From: Candidatus Terraquivivens ruidianensis
Lineage (GTDB): Archaea > Thermoproteota > Nitrososphaeria_A > Caldarchaeales > Wolframiiraptoraceae
NCBI GenBank assembly: GCA_023267885.1
Contig: JALNLB010000003.1
Span: forward strand, 12,792 to 76,791
DNA length: 64,000 nucleotides
Reading direction: 5' to 3'
Positions 918 to 56,086 of this stretch are shown in pieces. The notes beneath the pieces were generated by a model. It made no database searches. It saw only the letters and a program-made list of their open reading frames with translations, and was not told the origin of the DNA. The stretch's first letter is position 1. The number at the start of each line of letters is the position of its first letter. The position numbers and the translations under genes were made by a program.

Positions 918-1039
918 CACAACGGTCTCTATTTAAACTGGAGTTCCTAAGAAATACATGTAATGATTCTTACAATAATCTATACTCGTCTTATACTGCT
1001 TAAAGCTAGTGAACTCAAGGACGTAATATCGACAAGTGT

Positions 1040-2173
1040 TTACCTTCTTGTTTTTTCGGCGACCTTTATAGCTATGCCCTCAGCCATCTCCGCTGTAGTG
1101 GTCTGTCCTCCCATGTCATATGTCCTTAACCTTCCCTCGAGTATCGCTTCCGCTACGGCATCCTCTATGACCTTCGCAACCTCAACCTCGCCGAGCCACT
1201 CTACCATCATCTTGCCAGCCATTATCGCCGCTATTGGATTAGCCTTGTTTTTGCCAGCATGCTTTGGCGCAGAGCCGTGGACGGGCTCGAAGACCGCATA
1301 ATTGTCACCTATGTTGCCACTGTACGCGAATCCGAGACCTCCGACGAGTTGCGCCGCCAAATCTGAAAGTATGTCGCCGAACATGTTCTCGGCTACTATC
1401 ACGTCATGGTCGAGCGGATTCTTCAGCATCCACATACACATGGCATCCACGTTCGCCTCCCTATACTCTATATCTGGATACTCGCGTGCTATCTTTCTGG
1501 CAACGTTCAGCATCAGCCCGCCCGTCTCCCTTAACACATTCGGTTTATCGACGACCGTGACCGACCTCCTCTTGTACTTTCTCGTATACTCGAAAGCAGC
1601 TCTAACGATCCTCTCACAGGCCTGCCTCGTCATAACCCGGAGAGAAACCGCCACGTTTTCAAGGCCAAACTTTTCAAATTCCTTCATCCTATTGTTCTCG
1701 CATAGTGCGTCGAACACGTTTCTACTCAGCGGGTAGAACTCGACGCCTGCGTAAAGCCCCTCGGTGTTCTCTCTGAATATCACGATGTCTATGCCATCTC
1801 TATAGTTGAGGGGATTCCCTGGAAATGCTTTACATGGTCGCACGCACGCATAAAGGTCCAGCTCCTGCCTCAGTCGAACGATTGGGCTGTAGTACGTGAA
1901 GCCCTTTCCCCGAAGCTCTGGTGCGAGCTCCCTTTCAGCATCTTCCTTGGGCTTCGAGGTTATAGCGCCGAAGAGCGCGCAATCCGTCTCCCTTATAATT
2001 TTGAGCGTTCTGTCAGGTAGAGGGTTTCCTTCTTTGCACCAAAATTCCCAGCCTATATCGCCATGTATGTATTCTGCATCGAAGTTTGCCGCCTCCAAGA
2101 CCGTGAGCGCTGCCCTTATCACTTCGACACCTATCCCATCACCCGGTAGCACAGCAATCTTGTACTTTACCAT
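1040..2173 (-). CDS. Isocitrate / 3-isopropylmalate / homoisocitrate dehydrogenase family protein
   Basis: 377 aa. It has the IDH/IPMDH family signature ([26 protein letters not shown]). Confidence 0.85.
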
Positions 2174-2284
2174 GGGATTACGGCGTAAACCTCAGTTTTA
2201 AAACGTTTTCTATCCACGACTCTTCTGTTGACTTTAAAGTAAAAATTGCAGCTTTAGGCGATGCTTGTCATGTCGATATGCTAG

Positions 2285-2635
2285 TTAAGAGCCGCCGAGC
2301 AATAACTTCTGCTGCTTCTTGAATTCTTCTAAGACTATTTTTTTGACGAGGTCGCAGGCCTCAACGACTTTTGGGTTCGCTATCCTATAGTAGACGTTTG
2401 GCCCTTCTCGCCTTGTCTCGACTATACCTACATCACGGAGAATTGCGAGATGCTGAGAGAGATTTGCTTGAGCGACTCCGACTTCTTCGATCAATTCATT
2501 CACCGTCTTTTCACCTAATTTCAGCAGGTCAAGTACGTGAAGCCTCGTCGGATGGGCCATGGCTTTACAAAACTTTGCATGGACCTCGTAGAATGTTTTA
2601 CTGGCTTTGACCTCCGTATTCTGTTTCTGCCTCAT
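2285..2635 (-). CDS. ArsR/SmtB-family HTH transcriptional regulator with two Cys (possibly persulfide-sensing, SqrR/BigR-like)
   Basis: HTH region PTRLHVLDLL...TVNELIEEVGVAQANLSQHLAILRDVGIV. Cys residues sit at about 23 and about 93. It directly precedes the SQR-tusA-dsrE genes on the same strand. Confidence 0.8.
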   Translation of the reverse strand: MRQKQNTEVKASKTFYEVHAKFCKAMAHPTRLHVLDLLKLGEKTVNELIEEVGVAQANLSQHLAILRDVGIVETRREGPNVYYRIANPKVVEACDLVKKIVLEEFKKQQKLLLGGS

Positions 2636-3766
2636 TTAAGCCCATCCTTTCAAGACTGCACTCCAATATAGCTTTCCAACCAGCATCTTCGCATAATACC
2701 ACTTTCTGCTCAGCTTCGTCGGCTTTGGCGGGTTTTCGTAGTCGAAGACCATTGTTATGCCCTTCTTGAACCCTGCGTCGCAGAAGCATCGAACTTTACC
2801 ATCATAACGCCTTATTGTATCACTTCCCTTTATATCTGCCGCGATGTTTTCTGCCACGACCTTTGCTTCATAGTGGGCCGTGGCGCCCGCTTTCGATATC
2901 GGTATATCTGTAGCATCTCCGACAACATGAATATCATCGTAACCCTTTGCTCTGAGTGTATGCTTATCTGTCGGTATCCAGCCTCCCCTATTGCCCAGGC
3001 CCGAATCTTCTATTACTTTAGCGCCCCTATGGGGTGGGACAATTATCAGCAGGTCGTACTTTAGCGATTCACCCTCCAGCGAATGAACGAGCCTCTTCTC
3101 CGGCTCTATACGCTCTACGTTGAAAAGCTGTGTGTATTGGATGTCCTTTTTCTCCATAATCTCTTGGACTAGGGGTGCTACGGACTCCAGAGGGAAAACC
3201 CTCGGTAGAGGCGATAGGTAGTGGATCTCTATTTTGTGTCTAGAACCACGTTTCGTGAAGTAGTAATCGAGCTGACAGGCAGACTCCGCCGGTGCAGGTG
3301 GACATTTGTAGGGTATGCCGCCTATGCCAATCACAACCCTGCCGCCCGGAAAGCTATCGAGCGCCCTCCTCAGCCTTACTGAGGCATCAAGGTCGTAAAA
3401 GTGATGCGCGGCCTCGAAACCCGGCAACTCTTCAGGACACAACCTAGCACCTGTGGCCACGACCAAGTAATCGTAGCCCAAGATTCTGCCGGACTTTAAA
3501 CGGACTTTTCTATCGTCGGGCTTTATTAACGTAGCCTCGTCGATGATTAAGTCAACACGCCTATCGAGTAAGCGCCGTTCATCTCTGATCAAGTTCTCTG
3601 GCTTCTCGTCACCGAAGGCGACATAGATAAAACCCGGCTGGTAAACGTGTTTTCCTGTTGCGTCGACAAGCGTTATATTCACTTCGCTCGGAGAGACTTT
3701 TCTTGCTAGGACATTCGCTACTATCGTGCCACCTACTCCGCCGCCGAGTATCAGGACTTTCTTCAT
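2636..3766 (-). CDS. FAD-dependent pyridine nucleotide-disulfide oxidoreductase, sulfide:quinone oxidoreductase-like
   Basis: N-terminal GGGVGG Rossmann motif, 376 aa, and membership of the SQR/NDH-II family. Its neighbours are TusA and DsrE. Confidence 0.65.
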   Translation of the reverse strand: MKKVLILGGGVGGTIVANVLARKVSPSEVNITLVDATGKHVYQPGFIYVAFGDEKPENLIRDERRLLDRRVDLIIDEATLIKPDDRKVRLKSGRILGYDYLVVATGARLCPEELPGFEAAHHFYDLDASVRLRRALDSFPGGRVVIGIGGIPYKCPPAPAESACQLDYYFTKRGSRHKIEIHYLSPLPRVFPLESVAPLVQEIMEKKDIQYTQLFNVERIEPEKRLVHSLEGESLKYDLLIIVPPHRGAKVIEDSGLGNRGGWIPTDKHTLRAKGYDDIHVVGDATDIPISKAGATAHYEAKVVAENIAADIKGSDTIRRYDGKVRCFCDAGFKKGITMVFDYENPPKPTKLSRKWYYAKMLVGKLYWSAVLKGWA

Positions 3767-14569: not shown

Positions 14570-15421
14570 TTGACTTCTGTCATTTCTTTTCAGCATGCAC
14601 GAGGCGGCTCTGGCACTTCGCTCATTTCTATGATTAGCGCAAAGATCCTCTCAAGCTTTGGTAAGGTTGCTTTGCTGGAAATGGACTTCCTTAACCCTCT
14701 GCTACATCAAGTCTTTCCGCAAAAAACCTTGAAGGCACACGTTAACGACTTTATCTTTGGTGAGGCAAGCTTGGACGACGTGCTGGTAGACGTCGGACAA
14801 GAGGTTGATGCGAAGCCGAAGAATTTTTGGGTTGCTTACATGAATCCGCTTGAGGGCGCGAGGAAGAGGATGGAGTTTGCCGACGCTACACGGGATAAGC
14901 GGATAACTAAGACTTTTGAGAACGTTAGTTGGAGGGTCGAAGGCATGCCTTTAGACTTTGTTATGCTTGACATGGCACCGTGGAGTAACTACCTTAACGA
15001 CATAACATCCATAATATCGGATGTTGTATTCTTTATCATAAGGCCGAGCAGACTAGAGCTTACGTTGTTCCTCCATAGGTATGCAACGCAGCTCTCTCGT
15101 ATAATAGCGAAGGTTGTGCCCATAATCAACTTCTGCCCTTCGGATGACGAAGAATATGTCCAGATGATTATTAAGAGATTACAGGAGAATTGTCCAGAAT
15201 GTAAGAACGTTATCACCATACCGTATTACCAAGACCTTGCCTCGGGTCCAAGCAAGAAGCTAATCAAAGATTGCTCGCATCCTATATGCCGCGATTTAAG
15301 TAAAGCTATACTCAGTCCCGTCCCTAGAGAGAAGCCTTTTTTCAAAAACTCAAAAAACCATGAAACAAACGGACTAGTGGAAAGGTTGCAGGCTATCCAC
15401 TATCCTGAAAAAACTCCCTAA
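14570..15421 (+). CDS. ParA/MinD-fold (SIMIBI) P-loop protein with a degenerate Walker A motif
   Basis: It aligns to the deviant Walker A region (HARGGSGTS versus KGGxGKT), so both lysines are absent. The Walker B-like stretch FVMLDMAP is present. The track start is TTG. Confidence 0.55.
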   Translation: MTSVISFQHARGGSGTSLISMISAKILSSFGKVALLEMDFLNPLLHQVFPQKTLKAHVNDFIFGEASLDDVLVDVGQEVDAKPKNFWVAYMNPLEGARKRMEFADATRDKRITKTFENVSWRVEGMPLDFVMLDMAPWSNYLNDITSIISDVVFFIIRPSRLELTLFLHRYATQLSRIIAKVVPIINFCPSDDEEYVQMIIKRLQENCPECKNVITIPYYQDLASGPSKKLIKDCSHPICRDLSKAILSPVPREKPFFKNSKNHETNGLVERLQAIHYPEKTP

Positions 15422-16035: not shown

Positions 16036-16245
16036 GTGGTCAGAAGCTCCCTTTTAACGGACGACGACAGGGCCCTTCTCTTAAAGGTCAGCAACATGCT
16101 CGACGAGCTCTTGGAAACTCTTGGTGTCCTCGAGGATGAGGAGGTTATGAGGTCTATCGAGGAGGCCGAGGACGACGTCAAAGCTGGTAGGGTTAGAGGA
16201 TATGAGGAATTCATCGAGGAGCTGAAGAAGTCTGGAGAGATATGA
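16036..16245 (+). CDS. Type II antitoxin
   Basis: 69 aa acidic protein directly upstream of, and overlapping, a RelE/ParE toxin gene. Confidence 0.7.
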   Translation: MVRSSLLTDDDRALLLKVSNMLDELLETLGVLEDEEVMRSIEEAEDDVKAGRVRGYEEFIEELKKSGEI

Positions 16246-16297: not shown

Positions 16298-16489
16298 GTG
16301 AAAAGAAGGGTGGACTCGGCTATAAGAAGGCTTGGAGATGATCCCCGTCAAGGAAAACCCCTTAGGGGAGAGCTGTCTGGTAAATGGAGCCTAAGGGTTG
16401 GAGATTACAGGGTTATATACGTCGTAAACGAAGCAGAAAAGGCTGTCATACTCTACACAGTGAAGCATAGGAAGGTAGCGTACCGATGA
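16298..16489 (+). CDS. RelE/ParE-family toxin. The conserved N-terminus (YELKVTKCFEKDFRKLDP) is encoded upstream in frame without a canonical start, so this may be frameshifted.
   Basis: The C-terminal GDYRVIYVV...ILYTVKHRK is a RelE/ParE hallmark. The frame is open back to 16226. Confidence 0.65.
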   Translation: MKRRVDSAIRRLGDDPRQGKPLRGELSGKWSLRVGDYRVIYVVNEAEKAVILYTVKHRKVAYR

Positions 16490-16686: not shown

Positions 16687-19191
16687 TTAAGAGGGTAGCG
16701 CTCTGCTAAGGCTTGAAGCTCGGCTTTTTCGGTATGCTCTTCTGGCCAGAAGTAGCAGGAGTGCGAAAGGCAGGAATGCTAAAACGTTCTCGGGTATCAC
16801 GAGGTAGGTGTATTTGCCGGTATATCCCGTGTACATGGTTATAGGTACACGTACGACTCTAACACCTCCCGGTAATTCTTCTACTATAAATGACTGGTGT
16901 TGGAACCTGAGGTGTATGTAGCAGTTGGTACACGTCGGTAGGTTCACGGGCACGAAGACATCCTCCTCAAAGTCGCCATAATAAGTACCGCTGAAAGAAC
17001 CGCTTCCTATTTGTGTGCCCAAGTTGTTGGTATTGGGCGAGACATAAACCTCAACAGAACCTACCGTAGAGTCTGCCAACGAGTTCCCGGCGAAGTGGAA
17101 GACCCAAGTCCCATCGTCTGAATCTTGGAAGTTATAGGTTGACTCAGACCTCCAATAATAGTATGTAGATGAACTCAAACTTTGGGAACCGGATGGTTGG
17201 GTCGTACTCATCGTACCACTTCCTACTGTGGTGCCACCGTTGGGGTAAAGGTACAGGGTCTGATAAGGCACGTAGGCTTGAGCCTGCTGTATCGGCTGGA
17301 AGCTCACGAGAAGCATGAGCGACGTCGTCACGAATAATATGCCAGCCTTCCTCAACATGGAGGAATCTGGGCCGAACCTCGAACCGTAGAAGAGGAGCAC
17401 TCCCAAGCAAGCAGAAGCCAGGGCAGAGGCCGCATCGTAGAGCACAAGGGGCCCCATACCGAGGAGAAGCCTTAAGGGAATGTAGGAGGATACTACTGCC
17501 ACGACGCTGATGAGTAGCCTCGGCATCATGGCTCCGATTCGGATGCTTCGGCCCATCAGCCAAACGAGCGTGGCGATTCCCACGGATATGCTGGCCATCA
17601 AAATGGCGTACTCGGCCGGTTGTGGTATCCTGCTCCCTGACCCTTCGATGCTCGTCAGCAAGAGCTTAAGGAGGGCGTAGGCCAAGAAGGAGGATAGGAA
17701 CGATAGTATTGCGCAGGATACTATCCCTGACCTCTTCTTCATCGATTGCCTGCCCCTGAAGATTTTCCTGATGATGAACGCAAAGATGCCCTCGGTAATC
17801 TTTCCGGTCTTCAGCGTCCTGAACCAAGCAGACTCCTTTTTACTAAACAGCCCCTTGAGCGCAGCCATTGCCTGAAAGGTTGCCAAGACATGCATGAGCG
17901 GAATGAAGGTGAAAGCTCCCTTCCAATGCCTAGACGCCCTGTACTCTAAGTATAGACCAGTCAGGTTGACGAGTGGTATGGCCATCATGTTGGTGAGCAG
18001 TAGCGACCACCCGAAAATCGAGGTCCAGAACGGTATCTTCACCCTCAGGACTTCCGCAACCAACCATACGACCGTCCCAAGGATGAGGAACAAGCTGCTG
18101 AGGTAGTATGGGGATAGGTAGAGAAACTCCAGCTTCTCCCTCAACGATAAGAACTTGCTCCTAAGTATCTCCATGAAATAACGCTTCACAGCAAAGGTGT
18201 GGCCTTCAGCCCATCTTGCCCTCTGCCTAATCAGCGACATAAGGGTGGCGGGGCACTCGGCGGGCGCAGCTGCCAGCTGAGTGTACTTGACCTTGTAACC
18301 GTCCCGATAAAGCCTGAGCGTCAAGTCCCAGTCCTCCGTCAGGCTGTCCCTCCAGCCATACTGGCGTAGTATGTCGGCCCTTATCATGAAGACGCTACCT
18401 GATATCATACGCATACCCAGCATCAAATCGTTCACGAGCAACCTCTCAACCAAGTAGTTGCCCGCGTACTCGGCGCTCACGGCCTTCGTTATCCAGTTCT
18501 CGGAAGCGTTCAGGACGTGCCACTGGTAACCTTGAACTACAACGATCTCCCTAGAGCTGTACAGCTCGTCTAACATCTTACGTATGCCTCTGCCGTTCAG
18601 TTGACCGTTCTCGTATCCGTTACCGAATTCGTTAAGTAGCCTCTGGATTATGTCCTTTGGTGGTATGAAGTCTGCATCGAATACAACGACGTACTCCGCC
18701 TCATCGCTCATGAACTTGAGCGCCTCACGTAGCGCTCCACCTTTGAAGCCGCTCCTACTCTTCCTGTGGATTATCTTCACGCGCGGGTCTTTTTCATAGC
18801 GTCTCAATATGGTGGGCGTCGAGTCGGTCGAGTCGTCCACGACGATGACCTCGTATTTCGGGTAGTCCAAGGAAAGGAGAGCTTCCATGAGCCTCGCCGC
18901 AACCTTCTCTTCGTTGTAGAGGGGTATGTGGATACTCACCATCGGATAGTAGCCGTTACCTAAGGGGTCGGTAGTGCCGCCGTTCGTGTTGTGCCCGTTG
19001 TGCCTTAACTTTATACCGCCGTTCGTGTGGAATTTGTTGTTTCCGTTACCGTTGTTTCCATTCCTCTTGAAAAGTATGTAGGCCGTATATGCCAGCGCTA
19101 GATAGTACCTTATCGCGTACGTAAAGAAGAGTAAGCCGAATGCCAGGCTGAAGTACGGTAGTAGCTCAAGCACCTGCAACGCTATCGCCAC
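16687..19191 (-). CDS. Membrane-embedded processive family-2 glycosyltransferase (cellulose/chitin-synthase-like, QxxRW) with a C-terminal extracellular Ser/Thr-rich domain and a PEP/PGF-CTERM-like sorting signal
   Basis: DDSTD, DAD and QRARW motifs, multiple TM segments, and a C-terminal IPENVLAFLPFALLLLLARRAYRKSR tail. Confidence 0.8.
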   Translation of the reverse strand: MAIALQVLELLPYFSLAFGLLFFTYAIRYYLALAYTAYILFKRNGNNGNGNNKFHTNGGIKLRHNGHNTNGGTTDPLGNGYYPMVSIHIPLYNEEKVAARLMEALLSLDYPKYEVIVVDDSTDSTPTILRRYEKDPRVKIIHRKSRSGFKGGALREALKFMSDEAEYVVVFDADFIPPKDIIQRLLNEFGNGYENGQLNGRGIRKMLDELYSSREIVVVQGYQWHVLNASENWITKAVSAEYAGNYLVERLLVNDLMLGMRMISGSVFMIRADILRQYGWRDSLTEDWDLTLRLYRDGYKVKYTQLAAAPAECPATLMSLIRQRARWAEGHTFAVKRYFMEILRSKFLSLREKLEFLYLSPYYLSSLFLILGTVVWLVAEVLRVKIPFWTSIFGWSLLLTNMMAIPLVNLTGLYLEYRASRHWKGAFTFIPLMHVLATFQAMAALKGLFSKKESAWFRTLKTGKITEGIFAFIIRKIFRGRQSMKKRSGIVSCAILSFLSSFLAYALLKLLLTSIEGSGSRIPQPAEYAILMASISVGIATLVWLMGRSIRIGAMMPRLLISVVAVVSSYIPLRLLLGMGPLVLYDAASALASACLGVLLFYGSRFGPDSSMLRKAGILFVTTSLMLLVSFQPIQQAQAYVPYQTLYLYPNGGTTVGSGTMSTTQPSGSQSLSSSTYYYWRSESTYNFQDSDDGTWVFHFAGNSLADSTVGSVEVYVSPNTNNLGTQIGSGSFSGTYYGDFEEDVFVPVNLPTCTNCYIHLRFQHQSFIVEELPGGVRVVRVPITMYTGYTGKYTYLVIPENVLAFLPFALLLLLARRAYRKSRASSLSRALPS

Positions 19192-19726
19192 CAGTGCGCG
19201 TGCTGATGAACCAGAAGAGCATGAGCCAGCCGAACGTGACGAAGCTACCGAAATAGTCGTGGAATATTATGGCCGGACCTTTTCCAACGTATACGGCTAT
19301 GAGAGCTACGAGGGCTATCCTAAGTATGTTTACTAGGATTGTTCCCTGAAGGCCTACCAAGGTCGTCGTGAGCTTTCCGAGAAGGGATGAGGACGATTCC
19401 TTAAGGACGAGGTAGGATATGGCCGAGAATATCACGATGCTCTGCCAGCCTATGCAGTTCCAAGCTATGTACAGGGCAATTGCTCCGCCCGGCGCATTTA
19501 GGTAAACGATGGGGCCCGACAGCGTAGCCTCGAGCCCGAAAAGGGCCAGCATGGATGCCGTGAAGCGTGCCACGAGCGGAGCGATGTACGTCTCTATAAA
19601 CCACCATAGGCCGATCGACTTTATAATCTCCGTGAGAAACTCGTTAAAGGTGATGTAAAAAGGCATGATTATAAGGGTAAACGACGCGGCTATGAGAAGT
19701 ACGGCGTAGCCCCTTTCTTCCCTCAA
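19166..19726 (-). CDS. Exosortase/archaeosortase-family protein (small, 186 aa)
   Basis: Polytopic membrane protein with a Cys (WNCIGWQS) and an Arg (NILRIAL) about 47 residues apart, as in the exosortase core. It overlaps the GT gene start by 26 nt. Confidence 0.55.
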   Translation of the reverse strand: MREERGYAVLLIAASFTLIIMPFYITFNEFLTEIIKSIGLWWFIETYIAPLVARFTASMLALFGLEATLSGPIVYLNAPGGAIALYIAWNCIGWQSIVIFSAISYLVLKESSSSLLGKLTTTLVGLQGTILVNILRIALVALIAVYVGKGPAIIFHDYFGSFVTFGWLMLFWFISTRTGGDSVAGA

Positions 19727-19866
19727 CGCCGTTTAGCTCCGTGTTTTTAATACTTAAAAATAAATTTTTCCCTTATATAGTTATGTTAGGAAAAGCATCG
19801 GCCCTTATCACGTCTGACGTAGCAATTTATATATTCCGAAACAAGGCAACTAATGCCTGAAAGTGT

Positions 19867-48657: not shown

Positions 48658-48665
48658 TTAAATAA
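48658..48665 (+). promoter_or_regulatory. Candidate TATA box for the giant surface-protein gene
   Basis: ttaaataa lies about 38 nt upstream of the ATG at 48704. Confidence 0.3.
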
Positions 48666-48703
48666 AGCAGGTACAAGCATTCGGTCGCAAAATTGCGAGC
48701 GTG

Positions 48704-51700
48704 ATGAGAAAAATGGATAGACGTGCGAAGATAACCGCGCTGGCGCTTTTGGTAGTGATGGTTGCGGCAGTTATACTTCCTGCCGCGATCGTTCAGGTTA
48801 CAACAGCGCAGGCATACCATGAGGCATGGTTCAAGATAGTCACTTCTGCATGGAAAGGAACCCATAGATGGGAGTTCACAGGTTTTCCAGGTACGGGCTC
48901 TTTGGGCACTACAGGCTATTGGGATGAATATTATCCGCCAGTCTTCCCGATAGCAGACCAGTGGGGTATAATACCTGCAAGGTACAACCTAACGAAGATA
49001 GGTTCTGACGGTATCCCGACGTTGGAGCCGAACGTCGAGGTCGCAGTTTACTACCCGACAGGTCTTGAACCAAACCCCGTTGCATATTCTACGTTCACGC
49101 CGAACGGTACTGGCTTCGTAAAGGTTACATGGCCTAAAGACTGGCAAAACGTCACTATAGCAGTAAAGGCAAAGAGCTGGTACGGAGAGCCGATAAGGAC
49201 ATCTTCCAACAGGCTATACGAAGGAATTATACTGTTTATGATTAAGATAAATGCTACTAGGTACGAGTACGTTCGCAACGGCATAACTTCTGGTACTCTG
49301 TGGAGACCTAACGCGACCTTCATGTACAACGGTAGAGTAGGCATTCATCCATTCCTAGGAATGTTTGACTTTAGATACAGCGGGCCGGTTGTGTTCTGGT
49401 CGAAGGTAAGAGCCGACTCGGCCATTACCGACCTAGGTCCGGGTGCGTTCGCAGCATTCCACGCCAACGCTTCATACGCATTCCTTGCCAACTGCTCAAT
49501 TCTGTGGAAGAAGTTCCACACGCACACTTGGTATGGCATAAGGGACAACCTAAGCTATGCCCAGGTAAGGGTATACGACCTGAACTACACTGCCAACTCC
49601 CTTGGAGGAGTATCGGCACTGAGCGAGGCAACGCTGGTCGGAGCTGGAGTAACGAAGGCTCTCTACAGAGGTGATTCAAAGCTCAGGGATGCGGCTGACG
49701 GTCAGACTCCTTGGATACCCATACCCACCCAGACATTCCACCTGGGACTGAGGCTACCGTTCGCCCTCAGACATCCAACTGGAGATTTTGGCTTCGGCAA
49801 CGCCAGCTTCCCAGCAGGCCAGGCTAACACTGGCCCCCATCTGAACGCTACCGTCAGAGTTTGGTGGGAGACCGTCCTAGTAAACCAGACGAGGTACAGC
49901 TTCTGGGACAACCATACCATTTCTGAGAATCCAGACAGCATTATGGACACTTACGTAGACGCACCAGGTCCTCTAAACTTCACGCGTGGCGGATGGTTCA
50001 AGACACAAGATTACCATGGTATAGCGCCAAACCATAACAGCTCGTTAAACCACCTGAACTGTACGGTGTTCTACGCCAAGTTCCAGGCGAACGATACTGA
50101 CACGAGGGCAAAACACAGGACCTTCGGCGACGCTCTGGTCGATGCTCAAGTGCTAATAGTGTTGACGAAGCAGAAGGCAGGCGATGCAGGGCCAGTAGTT
50201 TACTTTGATAAGGATGAGATTGGTCTGACGAATGCTTCCAACACAGCGCTCCCAGGCCGTCATCCAGGCTATACAGACACCGTAAAGGGCTCCTCCATGG
50301 TGGGAGCTGAGGCCAACTTTACTGCTTTAGGTTACATGAGGTTCCCGAACTCATCGGTATTCTACTATGGAGGATACAAGATTGGAACTACACAGAAGGA
50401 TGTTAACCACCCATGGGTACTATACGACTACCCAGTAGTCTTCCACCCGGAGGATGCTGTGAACAGAGCAGAGGCTCTGGAGAGGCCGTGCACGAAGATA
50501 GTAAACATCAAGGAGCTGAACACGATAAGCCTTGACGATGACAAAGACAAGTGGGGCACTTTCAAGGGCATATTGGTACAAGTTAAGTGGAAGGGAGGTC
50601 CTGCTGGCGTATACGGAGGAGAATTCGTAACTGTAAACTCGACGCATATAACTAACCCATACGCCATAGCCCTCCGCAACGCATCATGGATTGTGCCTAC
50701 GAACCCAATACTGGTCAGGGCGACCCACGATGCTCTCAGCAGGTTTGATACGCCCGCCATCATGAGAGACCAGTACGGTATCAGAGGCCCGGTCTTCCCC
50801 AGACTCAGCAGGGGTGTTCTCACGCTTGGCGGCATATACCTTCTCAACTGTACTGTTTACGACCTTATGCTCCAGATAGTCGACAAGATGCTATCACCGC
50901 TCGAGCCTGCTGACACGAAGGTAGTCCTATACAGGCCGAACGGTCCTCCGGTAGAGTTCCAGGGCCTGCCTACAGAGCATACTGTACTGCTATCCGATGG
51001 AACACCAGTCTACAACGTCGTATTCTATGACTGGATATCGGCTAACGGAACGTTGTTGCTATTCCAGCTACCAGGCGATACGGGCGCTTATGGCATCAGG
51101 GTCTACTACCAAGGCGTTCTCGTCTACGATGAGCTGTTCCTGATACCCAAGCTGATAAAGACAGAGAACCTTACATTGGTAACGAACGTCTATAAGGTTC
51201 TGATAAAGGTGACGGATGCGCACGACGAGGGCTTGGCTTACACACCCGTATGGTACATACACCCAACTTACGGAGAAGTATTGGTCAACACTGCAGATGA
51301 CGGTAAGATAGATTTAGGAAAGACACCAATACCTGTCGGCGGTGGGGTAACGCTACCCACGCTGAAGTTCACTGGTGTTTACTGGAAGGGAGTTAAGGTA
51401 AAGTTCCTTGTGAAGGATGCGGTAAAGTATCCAGACGGCACGACGGCTGACTCAGAGCCTGACGGTTCCGTGTTCGTAGATACATCTAAGAGCGCATACA
51501 CGCCGATAATCGTTAGGGCAAGGATAACTGACCTAATATTCTACACATGGGACTTCCAGAAGGTTGAGAAGATAAACAATGTCAACATAACGATGTCTTG
51601 GTGGGGATACAACATAACGACTGGCAAGATTATAAAGTTCATAGAGACGATGGACCCAGGCGAAAGTAAGGACGTCGACCCGACAAAGCCAAGGCCGCCT

Positions 51701-54700
51701 ATCGGCGTACCGTGGGATTTGGCATTTGACCTGCAGAATTACAACACCTCAAGGATAGTCGCCCAGTTCTTCAGATACAAGATTACTTACTACATGGGCG
51801 AGGCCAAGGTGGTATTCCACCAGATGCCTGCTCTTGATGAGGAGGTCAACAGGCCTTGCATAAACGTAACGACGTCTACTATGACATGGAGATGGACCGG
51901 CTCGAACCATGAGAGGAAGCATTTCTCTGAGCTAATAGGTTGGGCCGGAGGCGCGGGTACATTCGCCGGAAACGCAACGCCTGGCTCTAACCTGTGGGAC
52001 AGTGTTACGACAGCTGAAGATGAGGCACATGGAAGGGTCGTGCTAAGGGTTATACCCAAGGCATTCAACCCTGACGTTTACTACGAAGACATAATCAAGG
52101 CTCTGAAGTTCGAGGAGCTTACGTTCTGCCAGAGGATAGCCATCGACCTTCCGCTCTGGGCTATGGGCTTCGACGTCGTTGCGATAAACGGTGAGAGATG
52201 GCTTGGCGGCGCAGAGTTCACGATAGTCAACGACGTAAACAGGACGATGATAACGCTAGTGACGAAGAGCGATGCGCCGATAACGCTAAGGTCGATAGTG
52301 AACAAGACGAACCCATTACTATCTAGGATATGGTGGAACAGCTCATCCCACTGGACGACTTACAACTTAGGCCCAAGCGGTAGGGCTAGGATACACGTAC
52401 CCGTCGCAGGCCAGGCGATGGTCGGCGCGATTGGAAGGGGATACAGGACAGAGTCCCTGACCTTCAAGACCGACATGGGTGTTACAGTGAGGAACTTCAC
52501 TTGGTACAGGTACGGCGGCGTATGGGCCGCTAACATAGGTCCGTGGCCAGACCGGGTCTCTGCTAACTACACGTTCTACGTGACGCCGAACGTAGCGCTG
52601 AAGGATGCATGGGCCACGAAGAAGACGATGGTTAGGGTCTGGGTCTGGAGCTTTGCAGAAGGCACGATGCCAGCAAAATACGACATTCCGTACATCTACG
52701 ATAAGCAGCTACTCAGGGTTCCGCTGCCCGTTGGCTTCATAACGCTGGAGCTGACTGACCAGGGTGGCGCTAGACCACTCAAGTACGCTTTTGTAAACAT
52801 AACAGCCCACATCAACGCTACTGTAGATGATGTGTGGCCGAGGTTCGTCGTCTACCCAGGGCCTGACGGAAAGGCACAGTGGGCAGGAAAGGTCGATTCT
52901 GAAGGAAAGGCAGAGATAATCGCACCGACTGCAGGATACCTGAACTACACGAGCAAGAAGTTTGGATATGAAGGTGATCCAGTAAGGTTCAAGACCTTCA
53001 ACATAACGGTATACTGGTACCTGAACAGCAGCGTCGTCTACGAGGCTTACTTCAACCTGACGAAGATGGGATGGAAGGTAGACAAGGTAGCGGTTGCAGA
53101 CGTCGTTCTGCACCACACGATATGCTCAGACCTTAACAGGGTAGTCAAGGGACTATACGCAGACGTGGCATGGAGGAACGTGACGGCGCCTGCCAATTTC
53201 GTGCACCCAGGCATACTGACTGCCGACGACGAGAAGTGGACGTGGACGCTGACGGAGATAGACGAGACGAAGGGGAAGGCAGCATGGACAACTGGAACAG
53301 TCGAGCTTAACCTAGTACCGACGGCTATGAAGTTCAAGGTCTACGACTGGTTCCTACAGAGGGAAGTCACGTGGAACGTAAGCCATCTATGGAGGGTCGC
53401 AGCGTGGTACACCGACCTGAAGAAAGGACCCGTACAGTTCGAAGGCGAGAGCTACAAGCAGCTGATGTTCGGTAGCGGCACTGATAAGTCACCAGTCAAC
53501 TCTGCTGTCTACATAATAATAGGCGCAGCACCATTCGACCACACGACGTACAGATGGACGAGAGCGAGCACTGATGTGCTAAGCGGCTGGTGGCCGGCAA
53601 CTACTGGTAGTGATGCGGACGGAAGTGGAGCACGATTTGTTGGTAAGATAGGCAGGTATCATCCTGTTACTTCGATAGGACTCATCGATTACTACGGTAC
53701 CGTCAAGACCAAAGAGGTCGTCGAGGCAACAAGGACAGTCAAGCTAGTGGCGCTTAAGCTGAACGCAACAGACTTGGCAGTAAAGGTAGCATGGCAGAGA
53801 GGAGAGAACGAGACGGCCACTTACATAACTGGTCCGCTGGTAGGCTGGAAGGTAAAGCTGACCTACGTACCGCCATACGAGTACCTATCTGATGCTGAAA
53901 GGGATGCTCTATGGACTGCATGGAGGAGGACGCTGGAGGTAACGACAGATGACGAGGGATTTGCATGGTTCAGGAGTGGTGACACACCGGAGACGGTCAT
54001 ATGGAACGCAAGCAGGATAAAGGCAGGAATGACCAGGGAGGCATCATGGCTTGTCGTCAGCCCGCCTGCTTACATGCTGAACGAGAAGGACCCGTACTGG
54101 CGTGACAACGTCGTAAAGCCTGGCGCTGAGGCACACGGCCTTAGCGTCTTCGAGGGAACGCAGGACCCAGCTGCCATGGTCGGCGTAGACCTTACACCGG
54201 AGGGATACTTCTCATGGCTGCCAGACCCATCGCTATGGGTAAGTGATGAGTGGTTTAGCACTATCTACTCCTTGTATGGCTATCCAGGTATGTGGACTTT
54301 CTATAACGAGTGGGGTGCAGGACTATGGTTGCCTTCACTCTTTGGCGAGGGATACAGTGGAAGCTCCGGATGGGCAAGGATAGCAGGCGCATGGTACGCA
54401 AGGATAAACGTATGGCCTAACAACCCAGCGACATCCCAGCACGTGCCTTACACGCCAGTGTTCCAGTACATGGAAGTAACGGCACAGATAAGGGACTTCA
54501 ACGGAAGGCCGCTGCCAGGCGCATTCTTCTGGATGATAGACTCGGTAACTGGCAAGACGGCAGGCTGGTCCTATGCTGGTAAGGACGGCCTCACTGAAAA
54601 AGTATACCTGAGGAAGCCTGAGTTCACCCTGCTGCTCAGAGTCCACTACCTAGGCAGGGATGCTGAAGGCCATCCAGCATGGCCGTTCAACGCCTTCGGA

Positions 54701-56086
54701 AAGTGGCCGGCTAGCTACTACAGCGATGCAGACGAGACAGAGCCAGGACCTGGAATATTCGGAGAGCTAGCAAAGAGGGTAAAGGTAACGACATTAGCCC
54801 ACGAGTATCATGGTGTTTGGAGGGTCAGGCCAGGCGTCCACTGGGATATAACGGCGAGGATATTCGACATAAGGGTAAGGCATTACTACGAGACTGCTAA
54901 GCCGATAGAGGTTGATGCAACGTTCTACAGGGAGTTCCCAGATAAGCTAGGTGGAACGGTTGAGTTCAAGGCTAAGGAGATCATAGAGGTCAAGAGGCTG
55001 AACAGGGGAACCTACGAGGAGATAGCCAAGTGGCTCGGAGTTGCAGTAGGAAGGAAGAGCTTCGACCTTAGCGCTGCCAACGTAGGAACGGTCGCCGCCG
55101 AGCTTGAGTGTGCCGTCGGTGACATAAGCGTGACCGCCAAGGACATAACTGGAAGGGTGCTGAGTGACGCCATCGCAAAGTTCGAGGGCGTCGAGCAGAA
55201 GCTGACGATACCGCCGGAGATACTTGAGAAGTACGGTATTGCGAGCGAGGAGGATGCTAAGACGTTGAAGGCAGTAGGCGCAGTGTTCGTGACGAGGTTG
55301 CCGATACCGACGAACATAAGGTACAGCCTAGACCTCTCATGGACCTCGCCTGACTTCGGAACGGATGCAAAGGTCTCAGTGGTCGACACGGTCAGCGGAC
55401 TTAACGCCAGGAGGGAGATAACGCTGCCTGTTGGCGTCGTTACGATCAACGTCGTGGACGGCAAGGGAAGGGCCATAGCAGGAGCCGAGGTGTCGCTAGG
55501 ACCAGTAAAGGCTAAGACAGATGCAGCAGGAAAGGCGGTGTTCGAGAGCGTACCGCTCGAGAGGGAAGGCAGGGGCATAGCCTACCAGATAACCGTCACA
55601 CGCGAGGGTGAGGTGGTCTACAGGGAGACCGAGACCTTCTCGGTAGCTAAGACCTCGATAACGGTCATAGGAGAGCTGTATGACCTTAGTGTGCTGGTGA
55701 AGGGTGCCGCAGGCCAAGGCCTGCCGTTCGCAACGGTAACGTTGAAGAGGGCAGGCGTGGTGGTGGGACACTTCACGACCGACGAGGGAGGTGCAGTGAC
55801 GATACCGAAGCTAGTGGCCGCAGACTACGAGGTAGAGGTTGCGTACAAGGGATACACAGGGACGGCCACCATCTCGAAGGCAGACCTGACGGCTGGCAAG
55901 AGGGCTGAGGTAACGCTGCCGCCATACGTAGAGATAGCCGGCATGCCTCTGACGTTCGCCACGTTCCTAGCCTTGATAATCGGCATAGTCCTGCTGGTCA
56001 TAGTAGTAGTCGTCATAGCATTCGAGTACGTGCGCTGGCGCGGTAGAAGGGTGGGAATATTCCCGCCTCCGCCACCAAAGAAGTAG
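48704..56086 (+). CDS. Giant (2460 aa) secreted, sequon-rich surface protein with a C-terminal TM anchor. It is a candidate S-layer or stalk glycoprotein.
   Basis: Signal peptide, more than 40 N-x-S/T sequons, two C-terminal CarboxypepD_reg/Cna-B-like beta-sandwich repeats, a TM helix and a RRVGIFPPPPPKK tail. Confidence 0.7.
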   Translation: MRKMDRRAKITALALLVVMVAAVILPAAIVQVTTAQAYHEAWFKIVTSAWKGTHRWEFTGFPGTGSLGTTGYWDEYYPPVFPIADQWGIIPARYNLTKIGSDGIPTLEPNVEVAVYYPTGLEPNPVAYSTFTPNGTGFVKVTWPKDWQNVTIAVKAKSWYGEPIRTSSNRLYEGIILFMIKINATRYEYVRNGITSGTLWRPNATFMYNGRVGIHPFLGMFDFRYSGPVVFWSKVRADSAITDLGPGAFAAFHANASYAFLANCSILWKKFHTHTWYGIRDNLSYAQVRVYDLNYTANSLGGVSALSEATLVGAGVTKALYRGDSKLRDAADGQTPWIPIPTQTFHLGLRLPFALRHPTGDFGFGNASFPAGQANTGPHLNATVRVWWETVLVNQTRYSFWDNHTISENPDSIMDTYVDAPGPLNFTRGGWFKTQDYHGIAPNHNSSLNHLNCTVFYAKFQANDTDTRAKHRTFGDALVDAQVLIVLTKQKAGDAGPVVYFDKDEIGLTNASNTALPGRHPGYTDTVKGSSMVGAEANFTALGYMRFPNSSVFYYGGYKIGTTQKDVNHPWVLYDYPVVFHPEDAVNRAEALERPCTKIVNIKELNTISLDDDKDKWGTFKGILVQVKWKGGPAGVYGGEFVTVNSTHITNPYAIALRNASWIVPTNPILVRATHDALSRFDTPAIMRDQYGIRGPVFPRLSRGVLTLGGIYLLNCTVYDLMLQIVDKMLSPLEPADTKVVLYRPNGPPVEFQGLPTEHTVLLSDGTPVYNVVFYDWISANGTLLLFQLPGDTGAYGIRVYYQGVLVYDELFLIPKLIKTENLTLVTNVYKVLIKVTDAHDEGLAYTPVWYIHPTYGEVLVNTADDGKIDLGKTPIPVGGGVTLPTLKFTGVYWKGVKVKFLVKDAVKYPDGTTADSEPDGSVFVDTSKSAYTPIIVRARITDLIFYTWDFQKVEKINNVNITMSWWGYNITTGKIIKFIETMDPGESKDVDPTKPRPPIGVPWDLAFDLQNYNTSRIVAQFFRYKITYYMGEAKVVFHQMPALDEEVNRPCINVTTSTMTWRWTGSNHERKHFSELIGWAGGAGTFAGNATPGSNLWDSVTTAEDEAHGRVVLRVIPKAFNPDVYYEDIIKALKFEELTFCQRIAIDLPLWAMGFDVVAINGERWLGGAEFTIVNDVNRTMITLVTKSDAPITLRSIVNKTNPLLSRIWWNSSSHWTTYNLGPSGRARIHVPVAGQAMVGAIGRGYRTESLTFKTDMGVTVRNFTWYRYGGVWAANIGPWPDRVSANYTFYVTPNVALKDAWATKKTMVRVWVWSFAEGTMPAKYDIPYIYDKQLLRVPLPVGFITLELTDQGGARPLKYAFVNITAHINATVDDVWPRFVVYPGPDGKAQWAGKVDSEGKAEIIAPTAGYLNYTSKKFGYEGDPVRFKTFNITVYWYLNSSVVYEAYFNLTKMGWKVDKVAVADVVLHHTICSDLNRVVKGLYADVAWRNVTAPANFVHPGILTADDEKWTWTLTEIDETKGKAAWTTGTVELNLVPTAMKFKVYDWFLQREVTWNVSHLWRVAAWYTDLKKGPVQFEGESYKQLMFGSGTDKSPVNSAVYIIIGAAPFDHTTYRWTRASTDVLSGWWPATTGSDADGSGARFVGKIGRYHPVTSIGLIDYYGTVKTKEVVEATRTVKLVALKLNATDLAVKVAWQRGENETATYITGPLVGWKVKLTYVPPYEYLSDAERDALWTAWRRTLEVTTDDEGFAWFRSGDTPETVIWNASRIKAGMTREASWLVVSPPAYMLNEKDPYWRDNVVKPGAEAHGLSVFEGTQDPAAMVGVDLTPEGYFSWLPDPSLWVSDEWFSTIYSLYGYPGMWTFYNEWGAGLWLPSLFGEGYSGSSGWARIAGAWYARINVWPNNPATSQHVPYTPVFQYMEVTAQIRDFNGRPLPGAFFWMIDSVTGKTAGWSYAGKDGLTEKVYLRKPEFTLLLRVHYLGRDAEGHPAWPFNAFGKWPASYYSDADETEPGPGIFGELAKRVKVTTLAHEYHGVWRVRPGVHWDITARIFDIRVRHYYETAKPIEVDATFYREFPDKLGGTVEFKAKEIIEVKRLNRGTYEEIAKWLGVAVGRKSFDLSAANVGTVAAELECAVGDISVTAKDITGRVLSDAIAKFEGVEQKLTIPPEILEKYGIASEEDAKTLKAVGAVFVTRLPIPTNIRYSLDLSWTSPDFGTDAKVSVVDTVSGLNARREITLPVGVVTINVVDGKGRAIAGAEVSLGPVKAKTDAAGKAVFESVPLEREGRGIAYQITVTREGEVVYRETETFSVAKTSITVIGELYDLSVLVKGAAGQGLPFATVTLKRAGVVVGHFTTDEGGAVTIPKLVAADYEVEVAYKGYTGTATISKADLTAGKRAEVTLPPYVEIAGMPLTFATFLALIIGIVLLVIVVVVIAFEYVRWRGRRVGIFPPPPPKK

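Follow-up and report, generated by a model that had tools for sequence, protein, structure and literature searches.

Can a polysaccharide synthase itself be the target of an exosortase? This question is raised by two overlapping genes in a 64,000 nt stretch of DNA from Candidatus Terraquivivens ruidianensis (contig JALNLB010000003.1, positions 12,792 to 76,791), which we call the window. One gene codes for a small protein of the exosortase/archaeosortase family, called the sortase below. The other codes for a processive family 2 glycosyltransferase (GT2, or simply GT), which ends in a candidate sorting signal. Exosortases take their name from their genomic association with exopolysaccharide loci, and a link between them and exopolysaccharides was reportedly proposed in 2006. 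We know of no molecular connection established between exosortase sorting and glycan synthesis. In the present case sorting and synthesis are physically linked: the signal is on the synthase, the genes overlap, and forms consisting of a single polypeptide are found in many organisms. We consider it likely that the two genes form a dedicated exosortase/archaeosortase system, one to one, in which the polysaccharide synthase is itself the target. The elements on which this proposal is based are the following, with lengths in amino acids (aa).

19166..19726, minus strand: sortase-family gene, 186 aa, six-helix short form, TTG start.
19454..19456, minus strand: codon of Cys91, the presumed catalytic nucleophile, invariant in alignment A1, at the start of helix 4 right after the sheet.
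19319..19330, minus strand: codons of Asn133-Ile-Leu-Arg136 (NxxR) with the presumed catalytic Arg, invariant in A1, in the outer third of helix 5.
19259..19261, minus strand: codon of His156 (FHDY), invariant in A1, near the start of helix 6.
16687..19191, minus strand: GT2 synthase gene, 834 aa when read from the GTG at 19191.
16720..16803, minus strand: tripartite sorting signal, aa 797-824 of the GT (LVIPEN, the hydrophobic helix VLAFLPFALLLLLA and the basic cluster RRAYRKSR).

Both open reading frames (ORFs) had been listed in a preliminary description made from the sequence alone, and they are found where it placed them, on the minus strand. The annotation of the metagenome-assembled genome (MAG) starts the GT at TTG 19179, which gives 829 aa. 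The genes overlap with both starts; the 26 nt which had been given for the overlap correspond to GTG 19191, and TTG 19179 reduces them to 14 nt.

The sortase and the signal

The 186 aa protein passes the cutoffs of TIGR04178 (47.1 bits, cutoff 23) and PF09721 (49.2 bits, cutoff 25.7), and all 19 family members tested match TIGR04178. These matches, together with the conserved Cys, Arg (with Asn) and His, confirm that it is a member of the exosortase/archaeosortase family, as had been suspected. It does not reach the cutoff of ArtE (29.1 bits, cutoff 95), ArtF (22, cutoff 150), XrtG (27.5, cutoff 102.75), XrtX (29, cutoff 170), CrtC (30.6, cutoff 225) or XrtA (23, cutoff 208). The ArtA model is absent among its matches, while ArtC, ArtE and ArtF only appear weakly (22-29 bits against cutoffs of 95-150). 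The same result is obtained for the whole family: none of the 19 members reaches the cutoff of a named subfamily, whether ArtA-F, XrtA-X, CrtA/C or thaumarchaeosortase, the best match having E = 1e-9. The comparison with the Art subfamilies which had been suggested does not provide an assignment for this protein or its homologs. The sortase is part of an uncurated subfamily, outside every named one.

Alignment A1 includes 19 archaeal and bacterial homologs of the sortase, with 30-80% identity. Cys91 (WNCIGWQS), Asn133 and Arg136 (NILRIAL, an N-x-x-R motif), His156 (FHDY) and an N-terminal PF..TFN block are invariant. Cys, Arg and His form the inferred catalytic triad of the family (Haft 2023 preprint), and Cys-173 is the active-site residue of ArtA (PMC7157517). 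A triad of Cys, Arg and Asn had been proposed for the window protein. Its first two members stand, and the third one is His in the triad of the family, with Asn133 also invariant here. In the AlphaFold2 (AF2) model, with a pLDDT of 82, the chain folds into six helices, with a sheet of three strands at residues 67-86. If helix 2 (aa 21-38) spans the membrane, counting helices from a cytoplasmic N-terminus would orient Cys91, Arg136 and His156 towards the outer leaflet. A sequence search of the PDB with the sortase gives no homolog, and Foldseek gives no fold match for the model among solved structures (best E = 0.28, rhodopsins).

In the window the GT tail reads L797-V-I-P800-E801-N, continues with a 14-residue hydrophobic stretch and RRAYRKSR, and ends 10 aa before the stop codon. 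The tripartite tail described at the C-terminus of the GT (IPEN, helix and RRAYRK) is present. The same ending, in which [IVM]-P-E-x precedes a hydrophobic helix with a basic cluster after it, is found in most of the 120 best GT homologs. In a logo built from 134 distinct signals the characteristic residues are V (79%, position -1), P, E (98%, +1), N/Y/S (+2), L (64%, +4), A (72%, +10), P (50%, +11) and P (90%, +14). The consensus is h-x-V-P-E-x-x-L..A-P-h-I-P, then basic residues. Pro800 and Glu801 are the only invariant columns of alignment A3, which covers the tail and the domain before it. The motif directly abuts the helix with no spacer, as it also does in PEP-CTERM and PGF-CTERM (Haft 2023 preprint).

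Twelve tail peptides, archaeal and bacterial, were compared with the curated CTERM models (8 tails with NCBIfam release 20 and 4 tails with Pfam), and no match was found at E values up to 10, a search in which the HMMER filters may hide very weak ones. We have accordingly rejected the tail as a known PEP-, PGF-, PEF-, VPXXXP- or Firmicu-CTERM signal; the comparison with PEP, PGF and PEF models which had been recommended fails to identify it.

The GT is the only tail-bearing protein in the window. We should also mention a stop-to-stop frame of 2474 aa (48662..56086, plus strand), with a hydrophobic helix and a short basic end, which contains no PE motif. It probably codes for a large protein of the cell surface, held by an ordinary C-terminal anchor, and not for a target of this sortase.

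The association between tail and sortase has been studied in two sets of loci. The first one was collected from the sortase: 80 genome loci, 45 of which have at least 3 kb on both sides. A GT is found within 600 nt and on the same strand in 34 of these 45 loci, and 30 of these 34 GTs pass a strict tail pattern. Five more loci have a GT within about 1.5 kb, and three have a truncated, frameshifted or non-GT tail protein. When applied to the 2345 complete ORFs of the 80 loci, the strict pattern is found in 63. They include 45 GT homologs, 14 edge-truncated or split ORFs directly upstream of the sortase and one non-GT neighbour of a sortase; only the other three look random, and the tail is not a product of chance.

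The second set was collected from the GT catalytic domain. It combines 80 loci from metagenomes with 6 tail-less loci which we chose, and was dereplicated at 90% identity; the distribution is as follows.

Tail-bearing GTs: sortase present in 26, absent in 3.
Tail-less GTs: sortase present in 1, absent in 9.

The difference (26/29 against 1/10) is significant by Fisher's exact test (p = 9e-6). The tail of the GT is conserved and adjoins a sortase gene, and tail-less homologs lack an adjacent sortase, as would be expected from the two-gene module originally proposed. The single tail-less GT accompanied by a sortase, in locus L120, has a decayed tail with MFD in place of VPE. Tail-less GTs are about 500 aa long. 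Two of them are followed by genes of about 193 aa, which we considered as divergent sortases and rejected (hhalign probability 0.06%). No hidden sortase is detected by hmmsearch at maximum sensitivity in loci L100, L106, L123, L130 and L135. The GTs of three of these (L106, L130 and L135) belong to a clade with the motif LLVPEY. In their sister L138 the sortase is 307 nt downstream, on the opposite strand, and the comparison of this locus with the other three indicates that the pair can be unlinked.

Consecutive genes in a one-to-one relation are the criterion for a dedicated sorting system (Haft 2023 preprint), and this is the relation observed here. In addition, GT and sortase may be fused. 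Proteins of about 950 aa contain, in this order, the GT, a transmembrane (TM) helix, the extracytoplasmic (ecto) domain, the signal IEVPE[ND]-helix-DRRR and the sortase domain, the last two separated by a linker which has about 25 aa. They represent about a quarter of the best GT homologs, and 8 of the 61 clusters in the metagenome set. The signal is therefore retained even when the enzyme is in cis, and the order of the domains implies that the N-terminus of the sortase is cytoplasmic. The fused sortases keep their catalytic residues (NVLRI...FH[DN]YGG endings).

The tail is also portable between proteins, with few carriers other than GTs. Locus L009 codes for a stand-alone protein of 410 aa (L009:309-1541, plus strand), with an N-terminal signal peptide, two ecto repeats and the tail VVVPEL..APLIP..RR, located between a tail-bearing ORF and the sortase. 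A non-GT tail protein of 417 aa is found beside the sortase in L078 (6579-7832). Bathyarchaeia have a third architecture: proteins of 430-475 aa which start with a sortase domain (hhalign probability 99.96%), followed by a TM helix, an ecto domain and the tail. Examples are L011:3913-5316 and L026:5093-6469, as well as P0213, P0223, P0225, P0237, P0245 and P0279. These proteins have a tail-bearing GT on one side and a further short sortase on the other.

The family is widespread. A profile search of 1.84 billion representative proteins gives 84 sortase clusters at E <= 1e-30 and 299 at E <= 1e-10. A pattern scan with one genome per species finds relatives of the sortase in 201 species, which include Caldarchaeales/Aigarchaeota, Bathyarchaeia, Chloroflexota/Anaerolineae, Patescibacteria and Dormibacterota.

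The synthase and its extracytoplasmic domain

The GT2 domain matches PF00535 (89 bits), PF13641 (75 bits) and PF13632 (51 bits). The four motifs of processive enzymes align with those of BcsA: D119-D120-S121, D172-A173-D174, T285-E286-D287 and Q323-R324-A-R326-W327. They are invariant (DDS, DAD, TED and QRARW) in the 21 homologs of alignment A2, which bears out the description of the protein as a processive GT2 with D, DxD and Q(R)xRW motifs. The protein does not reach the cutoff of any named equivalog among PgaC (101.7 bits, cutoff 422), CelA (62.9, cutoff 699) and NodC (44.6, cutoff 550), and the BcsA models give 52-63 bits against cutoffs of 699-992. Its hydrophobic helices at aa 354-449 align with TM helices of BcsA. 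The parts of the protein which precede the signal are listed below.

18955..19065, minus strand (linker): N-terminal TM region followed by an Asn/Gly-rich linker (NGNNGNGNN...), aa 43-79.
18157..18954, minus strand: cytoplasmic GT2 catalytic domain, aa 80-345, defined by Pfam, BcsA alignment and motifs.
17731..18132, minus strand: membrane part of the core synthase, aa 354-487, ending in a basic cytoplasmic loop after KTGKITE.
17362..17730, minus strand: four extra TM helices, aa 488-610, lineage-specific; most homologs have none here.
17275..17361, minus strand: signal-peptide-like TM helix, aa 611-639, with n-region LRK, an h-region and c-region QQAQA; possible cut before Tyr640.
16804..17274, minus strand: extracytoplasmic beta-jelly-roll domain, aa 640-796 (157 aa), acidic and rich in S, T, G and Y.

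The N-terminal TM region with its Asn/Gly-rich linker and the multi-TM block after the catalytic domain are both present as described. The linker recurs in distant GT homologs, many of which have a second NG-rich insert after the DAD motif.

The basic cytoplasmic loop (aa 450-486) contains 11 K/R residues, and the tail-less homologs P0188, P0163 and P0150 stop at the point equivalent to aa ~487. After the core, the window protein has five TM helices, the ecto domain, the last helix and RRAYRKSR. The topology has been deduced from hydropathy, the positive-inside rule and TM parity. They agree with the orientation proposed at first for the catalytic domain (inside) and the ecto domain (outside), and they also place the basic tail inside. 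We counted the TM helices from the KTGxITE motif to the ecto domain in 115 dereplicated tail-bearing homologs, and there is one in 84 cases, three in 11, five in 2 and seven in 1. The number is odd in 98 of the 115 and even in 17. The even counts look like hydrophobic beta-strands scored as TM helices, or one missed helix (P0075). With these discounted, the odd counts lead to a prediction in which the ecto domain is consistently outside and the basic tail inside.

An extracellular C-terminal domain rich in Ser, Thr, Gly and Tyr had been described with about 190 aa. Its position and composition hold, and its size should be reduced to about 157 aa. According to the AF2 model the fold is a jelly-roll of the CBM or CocE-C-terminal type, in agreement with an early guess of a CBM-type fold. 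When this model is compared with known folds, BcsB scores no better than generic CBM jelly-rolls, while CocE/NonD scores higher. The stand-alone L009 protein also has a weak match to the C-terminal region of CocE/NonD. On the other hand, hhalign comparison of alignment A3 with the L009 and L011 proteins gives weak or absent similarity outside the tail, so the ecto domains do not form one sequence family. The ecto modules differ in size, the largest exceeding 1,500 aa, and some of them contain Laminin_G_3 and DUF2341 domains. The shortest ones, of about 22 aa (AQA followed by YPPPPDPCIDPGGCWDDIDIPEN, with two Cys), are found in some Caldarchaeum GTs, such as L005:8554-10443 (P0085-like, 629-634 aa). 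The conserved element is therefore the signal, and not a folded domain.

The helix before the ecto domain resembles a signal peptide, and a signal peptidase may cut it before Tyr640. Position -1 is A or G in 16 of the 17 rows of A3, and position -3 is A, T, I, V or S. In the AF2 ecto model, pLDDT falls below 50 only in the linker before the ecto domain. The stand-alone homolog in L009 has, in the place of aa 611-639, a true signal peptide at its N-terminus.

Some bacterial GTs with the tail have additional domains. P0125, P0139, P0140, P0145, P0151 and P0182 (Anaerolineae and relatives), with 970-1110 aa, include a receiver domain (PF00072), and most of the bacterial GTs with PF00072 also have a domain similar to the C-terminal part of the RNA polymerase alpha subunit (PF03118). 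These additional domains suggest direct two-component control of the synthase.

Proposed mechanism, alternatives and known systems

By analogy with ArtA/PGF-CTERM and XrtA/PEP-CTERM, we infer that the sortase cleaves the tail of the GT. The signal helix would dock in the sortase, and Cys91 would attack the chain at or just after Pro800-Glu801, on the outer face of the membrane. The helix and the basic tail would be released, and the thioester intermediate might be resolved by a nucleophile: the amine of a lipid head group, as proposed for ArtA, or possibly water or glycan. As a result, the jelly-roll domain would be either anchored again or set free where the glycan channel opens. If a signal peptidase also cuts at A-x-A, the ecto domain would be excised at both ends. 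In that case the gene would unite a synthase with the counterpart of the CTERM target, which is a separate protein in the XrtG system.

Several observations do not fit easily in this scheme. Every one of its mechanistic steps rests on analogy, and an enzyme fused to its substrate in cis would turn over only once, an unusual situation for a protease. Ecto domains of only some 22 aa exist, as in P0085 and L005, which means that the sorted item need not be a folded domain. The fusions with sortase, ecto domain and tail often have VSE or VDE, and their helix is sometimes charged, so they look like poor substrates. In the window itself, the tail lacks the Pro which is 90% conserved at position +14, with the Ala at +10 present. 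As to the association, three of the 45 sortase loci (L014, L022 and L067) have no GT or tail protein nearby, and the tail-bearing GT loci L106, L130 and L135 have no sortase within 3.7-7 kb. Finally, a crude count which takes in every sequence gives only a modest enrichment of A-x-A (32% against 22%), and its segment finder scored beta-strands as TM helices; the curated A3 alignment, which shows the enrichment clearly, is preferred. This modest enrichment is the reason why a cut by signal peptidase is only postulated here.

Some of these features would be natural if the sortase did not cut at all. The C-terminal helix could be a permanent anchor similar to that of BcsB, and the small protein a scaffold or regulatory subunit derived from a sortase, which binds and does not cleave. 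Fusions of substrate and enzyme in cis and degenerate VSE or VDE motifs are what a stable complex might show, and the ecto domain is dispensable in some lineages. Nevertheless, every aligned homolog retains Cys, Arg and His, down to 30% identity and also in the fused forms, and pseudo-enzymes usually lose their catalytic residues. An invariant Pro-Glu where the helix begins, together with a basic cluster, is a hallmark of cleaved signals, and the fold comparison does not single out BcsB from generic CBM jelly-rolls and ranks CocE/NonD above it. We consider this explanation unlikely. Even less probable, in fact very improbable, is a general sorting system, in which the sortase would serve many surface proteins coded elsewhere, the GT tail being one of many or irrelevant. 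Exosortases are classically found in exopolysaccharide loci (Haft 2023 preprint), and the bacterial members of the present family do belong to larger clusters, which also code for an epimerase, a GT4, a methyltransferase and a polytopic membrane protein of large size, similar to GT-C. A few non-GT proteins with the tail also exist (L009 and L078). Against this possibility, the two genes are adjacent one to one and often overlap, the criteria of Haft for a dedicated system apply, and the GT, the signal and the sortase may be part of a single protein. Moreover, the tail is essentially confined to the neighbour of the sortase in about 2,300 flanking ORFs, there is no second PE tail in the window, and the paralogous GTs which lack the tail also lack the sortase.

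A dedicated system with a cleaved tail is compatible with a further proposal, that the GT is a polyprotein. Signal peptidase would cut after A637-Q-A639 and the sortase at P800-E801, giving a synthase of about 640 aa and a jelly-roll protein of about 160 aa. The latter, with its C-terminus modified, would correspond to the CTERM target which XrtG-type systems have as a protein of its own. The conserved -1 and -3 positions, the basic n-region and the disordered c-region of the model speak for it. So do the 84 of the 115 homologs in which only one TM helix lies between the GT core, with its cytoplasmic end, and the ecto domain, the true signal peptide at this place in the L009 protein, and the separate genes for the target in XrtG systems. 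On the other side, with 20-28 residues the h-regions are long for a signal peptide which is cleaved and are in keeping with signal anchors, the A-x-A enrichment is small, and there is no experimental precedent in the family. We propose it only tentatively. More doubtful is the idea that the sortase joins the new C-terminus of the ecto module (Pro-Glu) covalently to an acceptor made on site, either the nascent glycan or a membrane lipid. If this were true, a single step at the synthase exit would put together the polymer, its carrier domain and its anchor. The fusions of GT, target and sortase would be single-turnover machines which process themselves, and the lineages with a 22 aa ecto module would make a small peptide-glycan or peptide-lipid conjugate. 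It would also explain, for the first time in concrete terms, how exosortases are linked to exopolysaccharide synthesis.

The closest analogue of the dedicated system proposed here is the XrtG system of Firmicutes. In Lactiplantibacillus plantarum it consists of a Firmicu-CTERM target protein, XrtG and two associated GTs (PMC12854382). Curated models exist for GTs located beside short exosortases, TIGR03111 for the GT2 associated with XrtG and NF053846 for the GT associated with XrtP. The similarities are an exosortase of about 190 aa (TIGR03110), a small dedicated cluster, GT2 genes of the BcsA/PgaC type and a single CTERM target. By score the likeness is weak: 27.5 bits against 102.75 for the window sortase, and E = 8e-11 with TIGR03111 for the window GT, under a cutoff of 364 bits. 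There are also clear differences. The target of XrtG is a separate small protein, whereas here it is fused to the synthase and sometimes also to the sortase. The GT models of XrtG systems have about 440 aa, with no ecto domain or tail, and the present signal is not matched by any curated CTERM model. XrtG is found in Firmicutes, and the present family in archaea, Chloroflexota, Patescibacteria and Dormibacterota.

PEP-CTERM and XrtA (EpsH) belong to the same superfamily and share the tripartite logic of the signal and the association with polysaccharide biosynthesis. The V-P-E core found here is similar to the VPEP core of the PEP-CTERM consensus, but the second Pro of PEP is missing and position +2 is N, Y or S. 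XrtA differs in having 8 TM helices, about 270-500 aa and many targets per genome, which are secreted proteins rather than a synthase. The scores are low (23.7 bits for TIGR02602, cutoff 105.55, and 23 for XrtA, cutoff 208). ArtA, the only archaeal member with experimental support, serves as our mechanistic template. In Haloferax volcanii, whose S-layer glycoprotein carries PGF-CTERM, removal of the C-terminal helix depends on Cys and is coupled to lipid attachment, and a thioester resolved by archaetidylethanolamine has been proposed (PMC7157517). ArtA differs from the present system in its PGF signal, its many substrates and its larger size. No pssA-like or pssD-like genes were seen near the sortase-GT module. 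ArtE (TIGR04124) and ArtF (TIGR04293) are also archaeal and short (models of about 150-170 aa) and share the conserved core region, but none of the 19 members of our family is near either cutoff, as seen above for the window protein.

The BcsA-BcsB pair is similar in another way. It combines a processive GT2 with D, DxD, TED and QxxRW motifs and an extracytoplasmic jelly-roll partner on a single C-terminal helix. Acetic acid bacteria have natural fusions of BcsA and BcsB, which are later split. Bcs systems, on the other hand, have no sortase, and a PilZ domain is absent here.

The preliminary description considered that this arrangement had not been described. This is not correct for a short exosortase beside a GT2, already known from XrtG and XrtP, while a target located within the synthase is indeed new. 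Our search of the literature on exosortases combined with GT fusion, cellulose synthase and Patescibacteria found no description of a target fused to a synthase. The novel features are the target module within the synthase, a sortase outside the named subfamilies and a signal which has no curated model. A purely genomic link between exosortases and polysaccharides becomes a physically defined system, with two genes or only one, which can be tested. The natural fusion of enzyme and substrate, with a single known substrate, would be useful for structural work on the sortase family, a group of proteases without a solved structure. At present these proteins are only named "glycosyltransferase" and "exosortase/archaeosortase family protein". 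Recognition of the uncurated subfamily and its new CTERM signal would improve annotation in Caldarchaeales/Wolframiiraptoraceae, Bathyarchaeia, Chloroflexota, Patescibacteria and Dormibacterota.

The locus and its neighbours

The 186 aa protein is 100% identical to a protein from a Nitrososphaerota MAG (JAWCLY010000001.1, GCA_038850335.1), which NCBI calls "archaeosortase/exosortase family protein". Its nearest named relative, with 82% identity, is from Ca. Terraquivivens tikiterensis (Nitrososphaerota, Ca. Wolframiiraptoraceae). A placement of this DNA in the Thermoproteales had been assumed, and it is wrong: the identity of these relatives indicates Nitrososphaerota of the Ca. Wolframiiraptoraceae type. 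Other features of the locus are the following.

19727..19866, minus strand: AT-rich intergenic region, shared divergently with atpE; read from the sequence.
16036..16245 and 16298..16489, plus strand: ParE-family toxin (PF05016) and putative antitoxin of 69 aa, between the GT and the next conserved gene.
14570..15421, plus strand: ParA/MinD-like ATPase, 283 aa, weak match to PF13614.

The intergenic region is likely to be the promoter of the sortase-GT pair, because TATA-like runs (ctatataag and tttatttttaag) are found 25-55 nt upstream of the TTG start of the sortase. A scan for sigma-70 promoters and terminators is uninformative for an archaeon. The pair is divergent from atpE-atpA-atpB, and atpF is located 2.2 kb past the GT. 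The position beside atpE/A/B is kept in L001 and L002, with about 80% identity, while more distant Caldarchaeales have a different context. The GC content of the locus is unremarkable. The module had been taken for an accessory insertion between A-ATPase genes. Its conserved placement in these relatives indicates, instead, that the synteny is a feature of the lineage and that there was no recent insertion. For the ParE toxin pair, locus L001 of Ca. Terraquivivens gave no match, and this pair is probably the one accessory element here.

About 31 archaeal loci have a homolog of the ParA/MinD-like ATPase upstream of the GT, at a distance of 0.5-1.5 kb (for example L081:5036-5821 and L083:4658-5443). 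These homologs accompany tail-bearing and tail-less GTs alike. BcsQ is an analogous partner of bacterial cellulose synthase, and the ATPase is a possible accessory partner of the synthase, outside the sorting pair.

In L001 (positions 932-3434, Ca. Terraquivivens tikiterensis) the GT is broken within the ecto domain, which results in an ORF of 673 aa and a second one of 154 aa which carries the tail. This split is either a frameshift or an assembly error.

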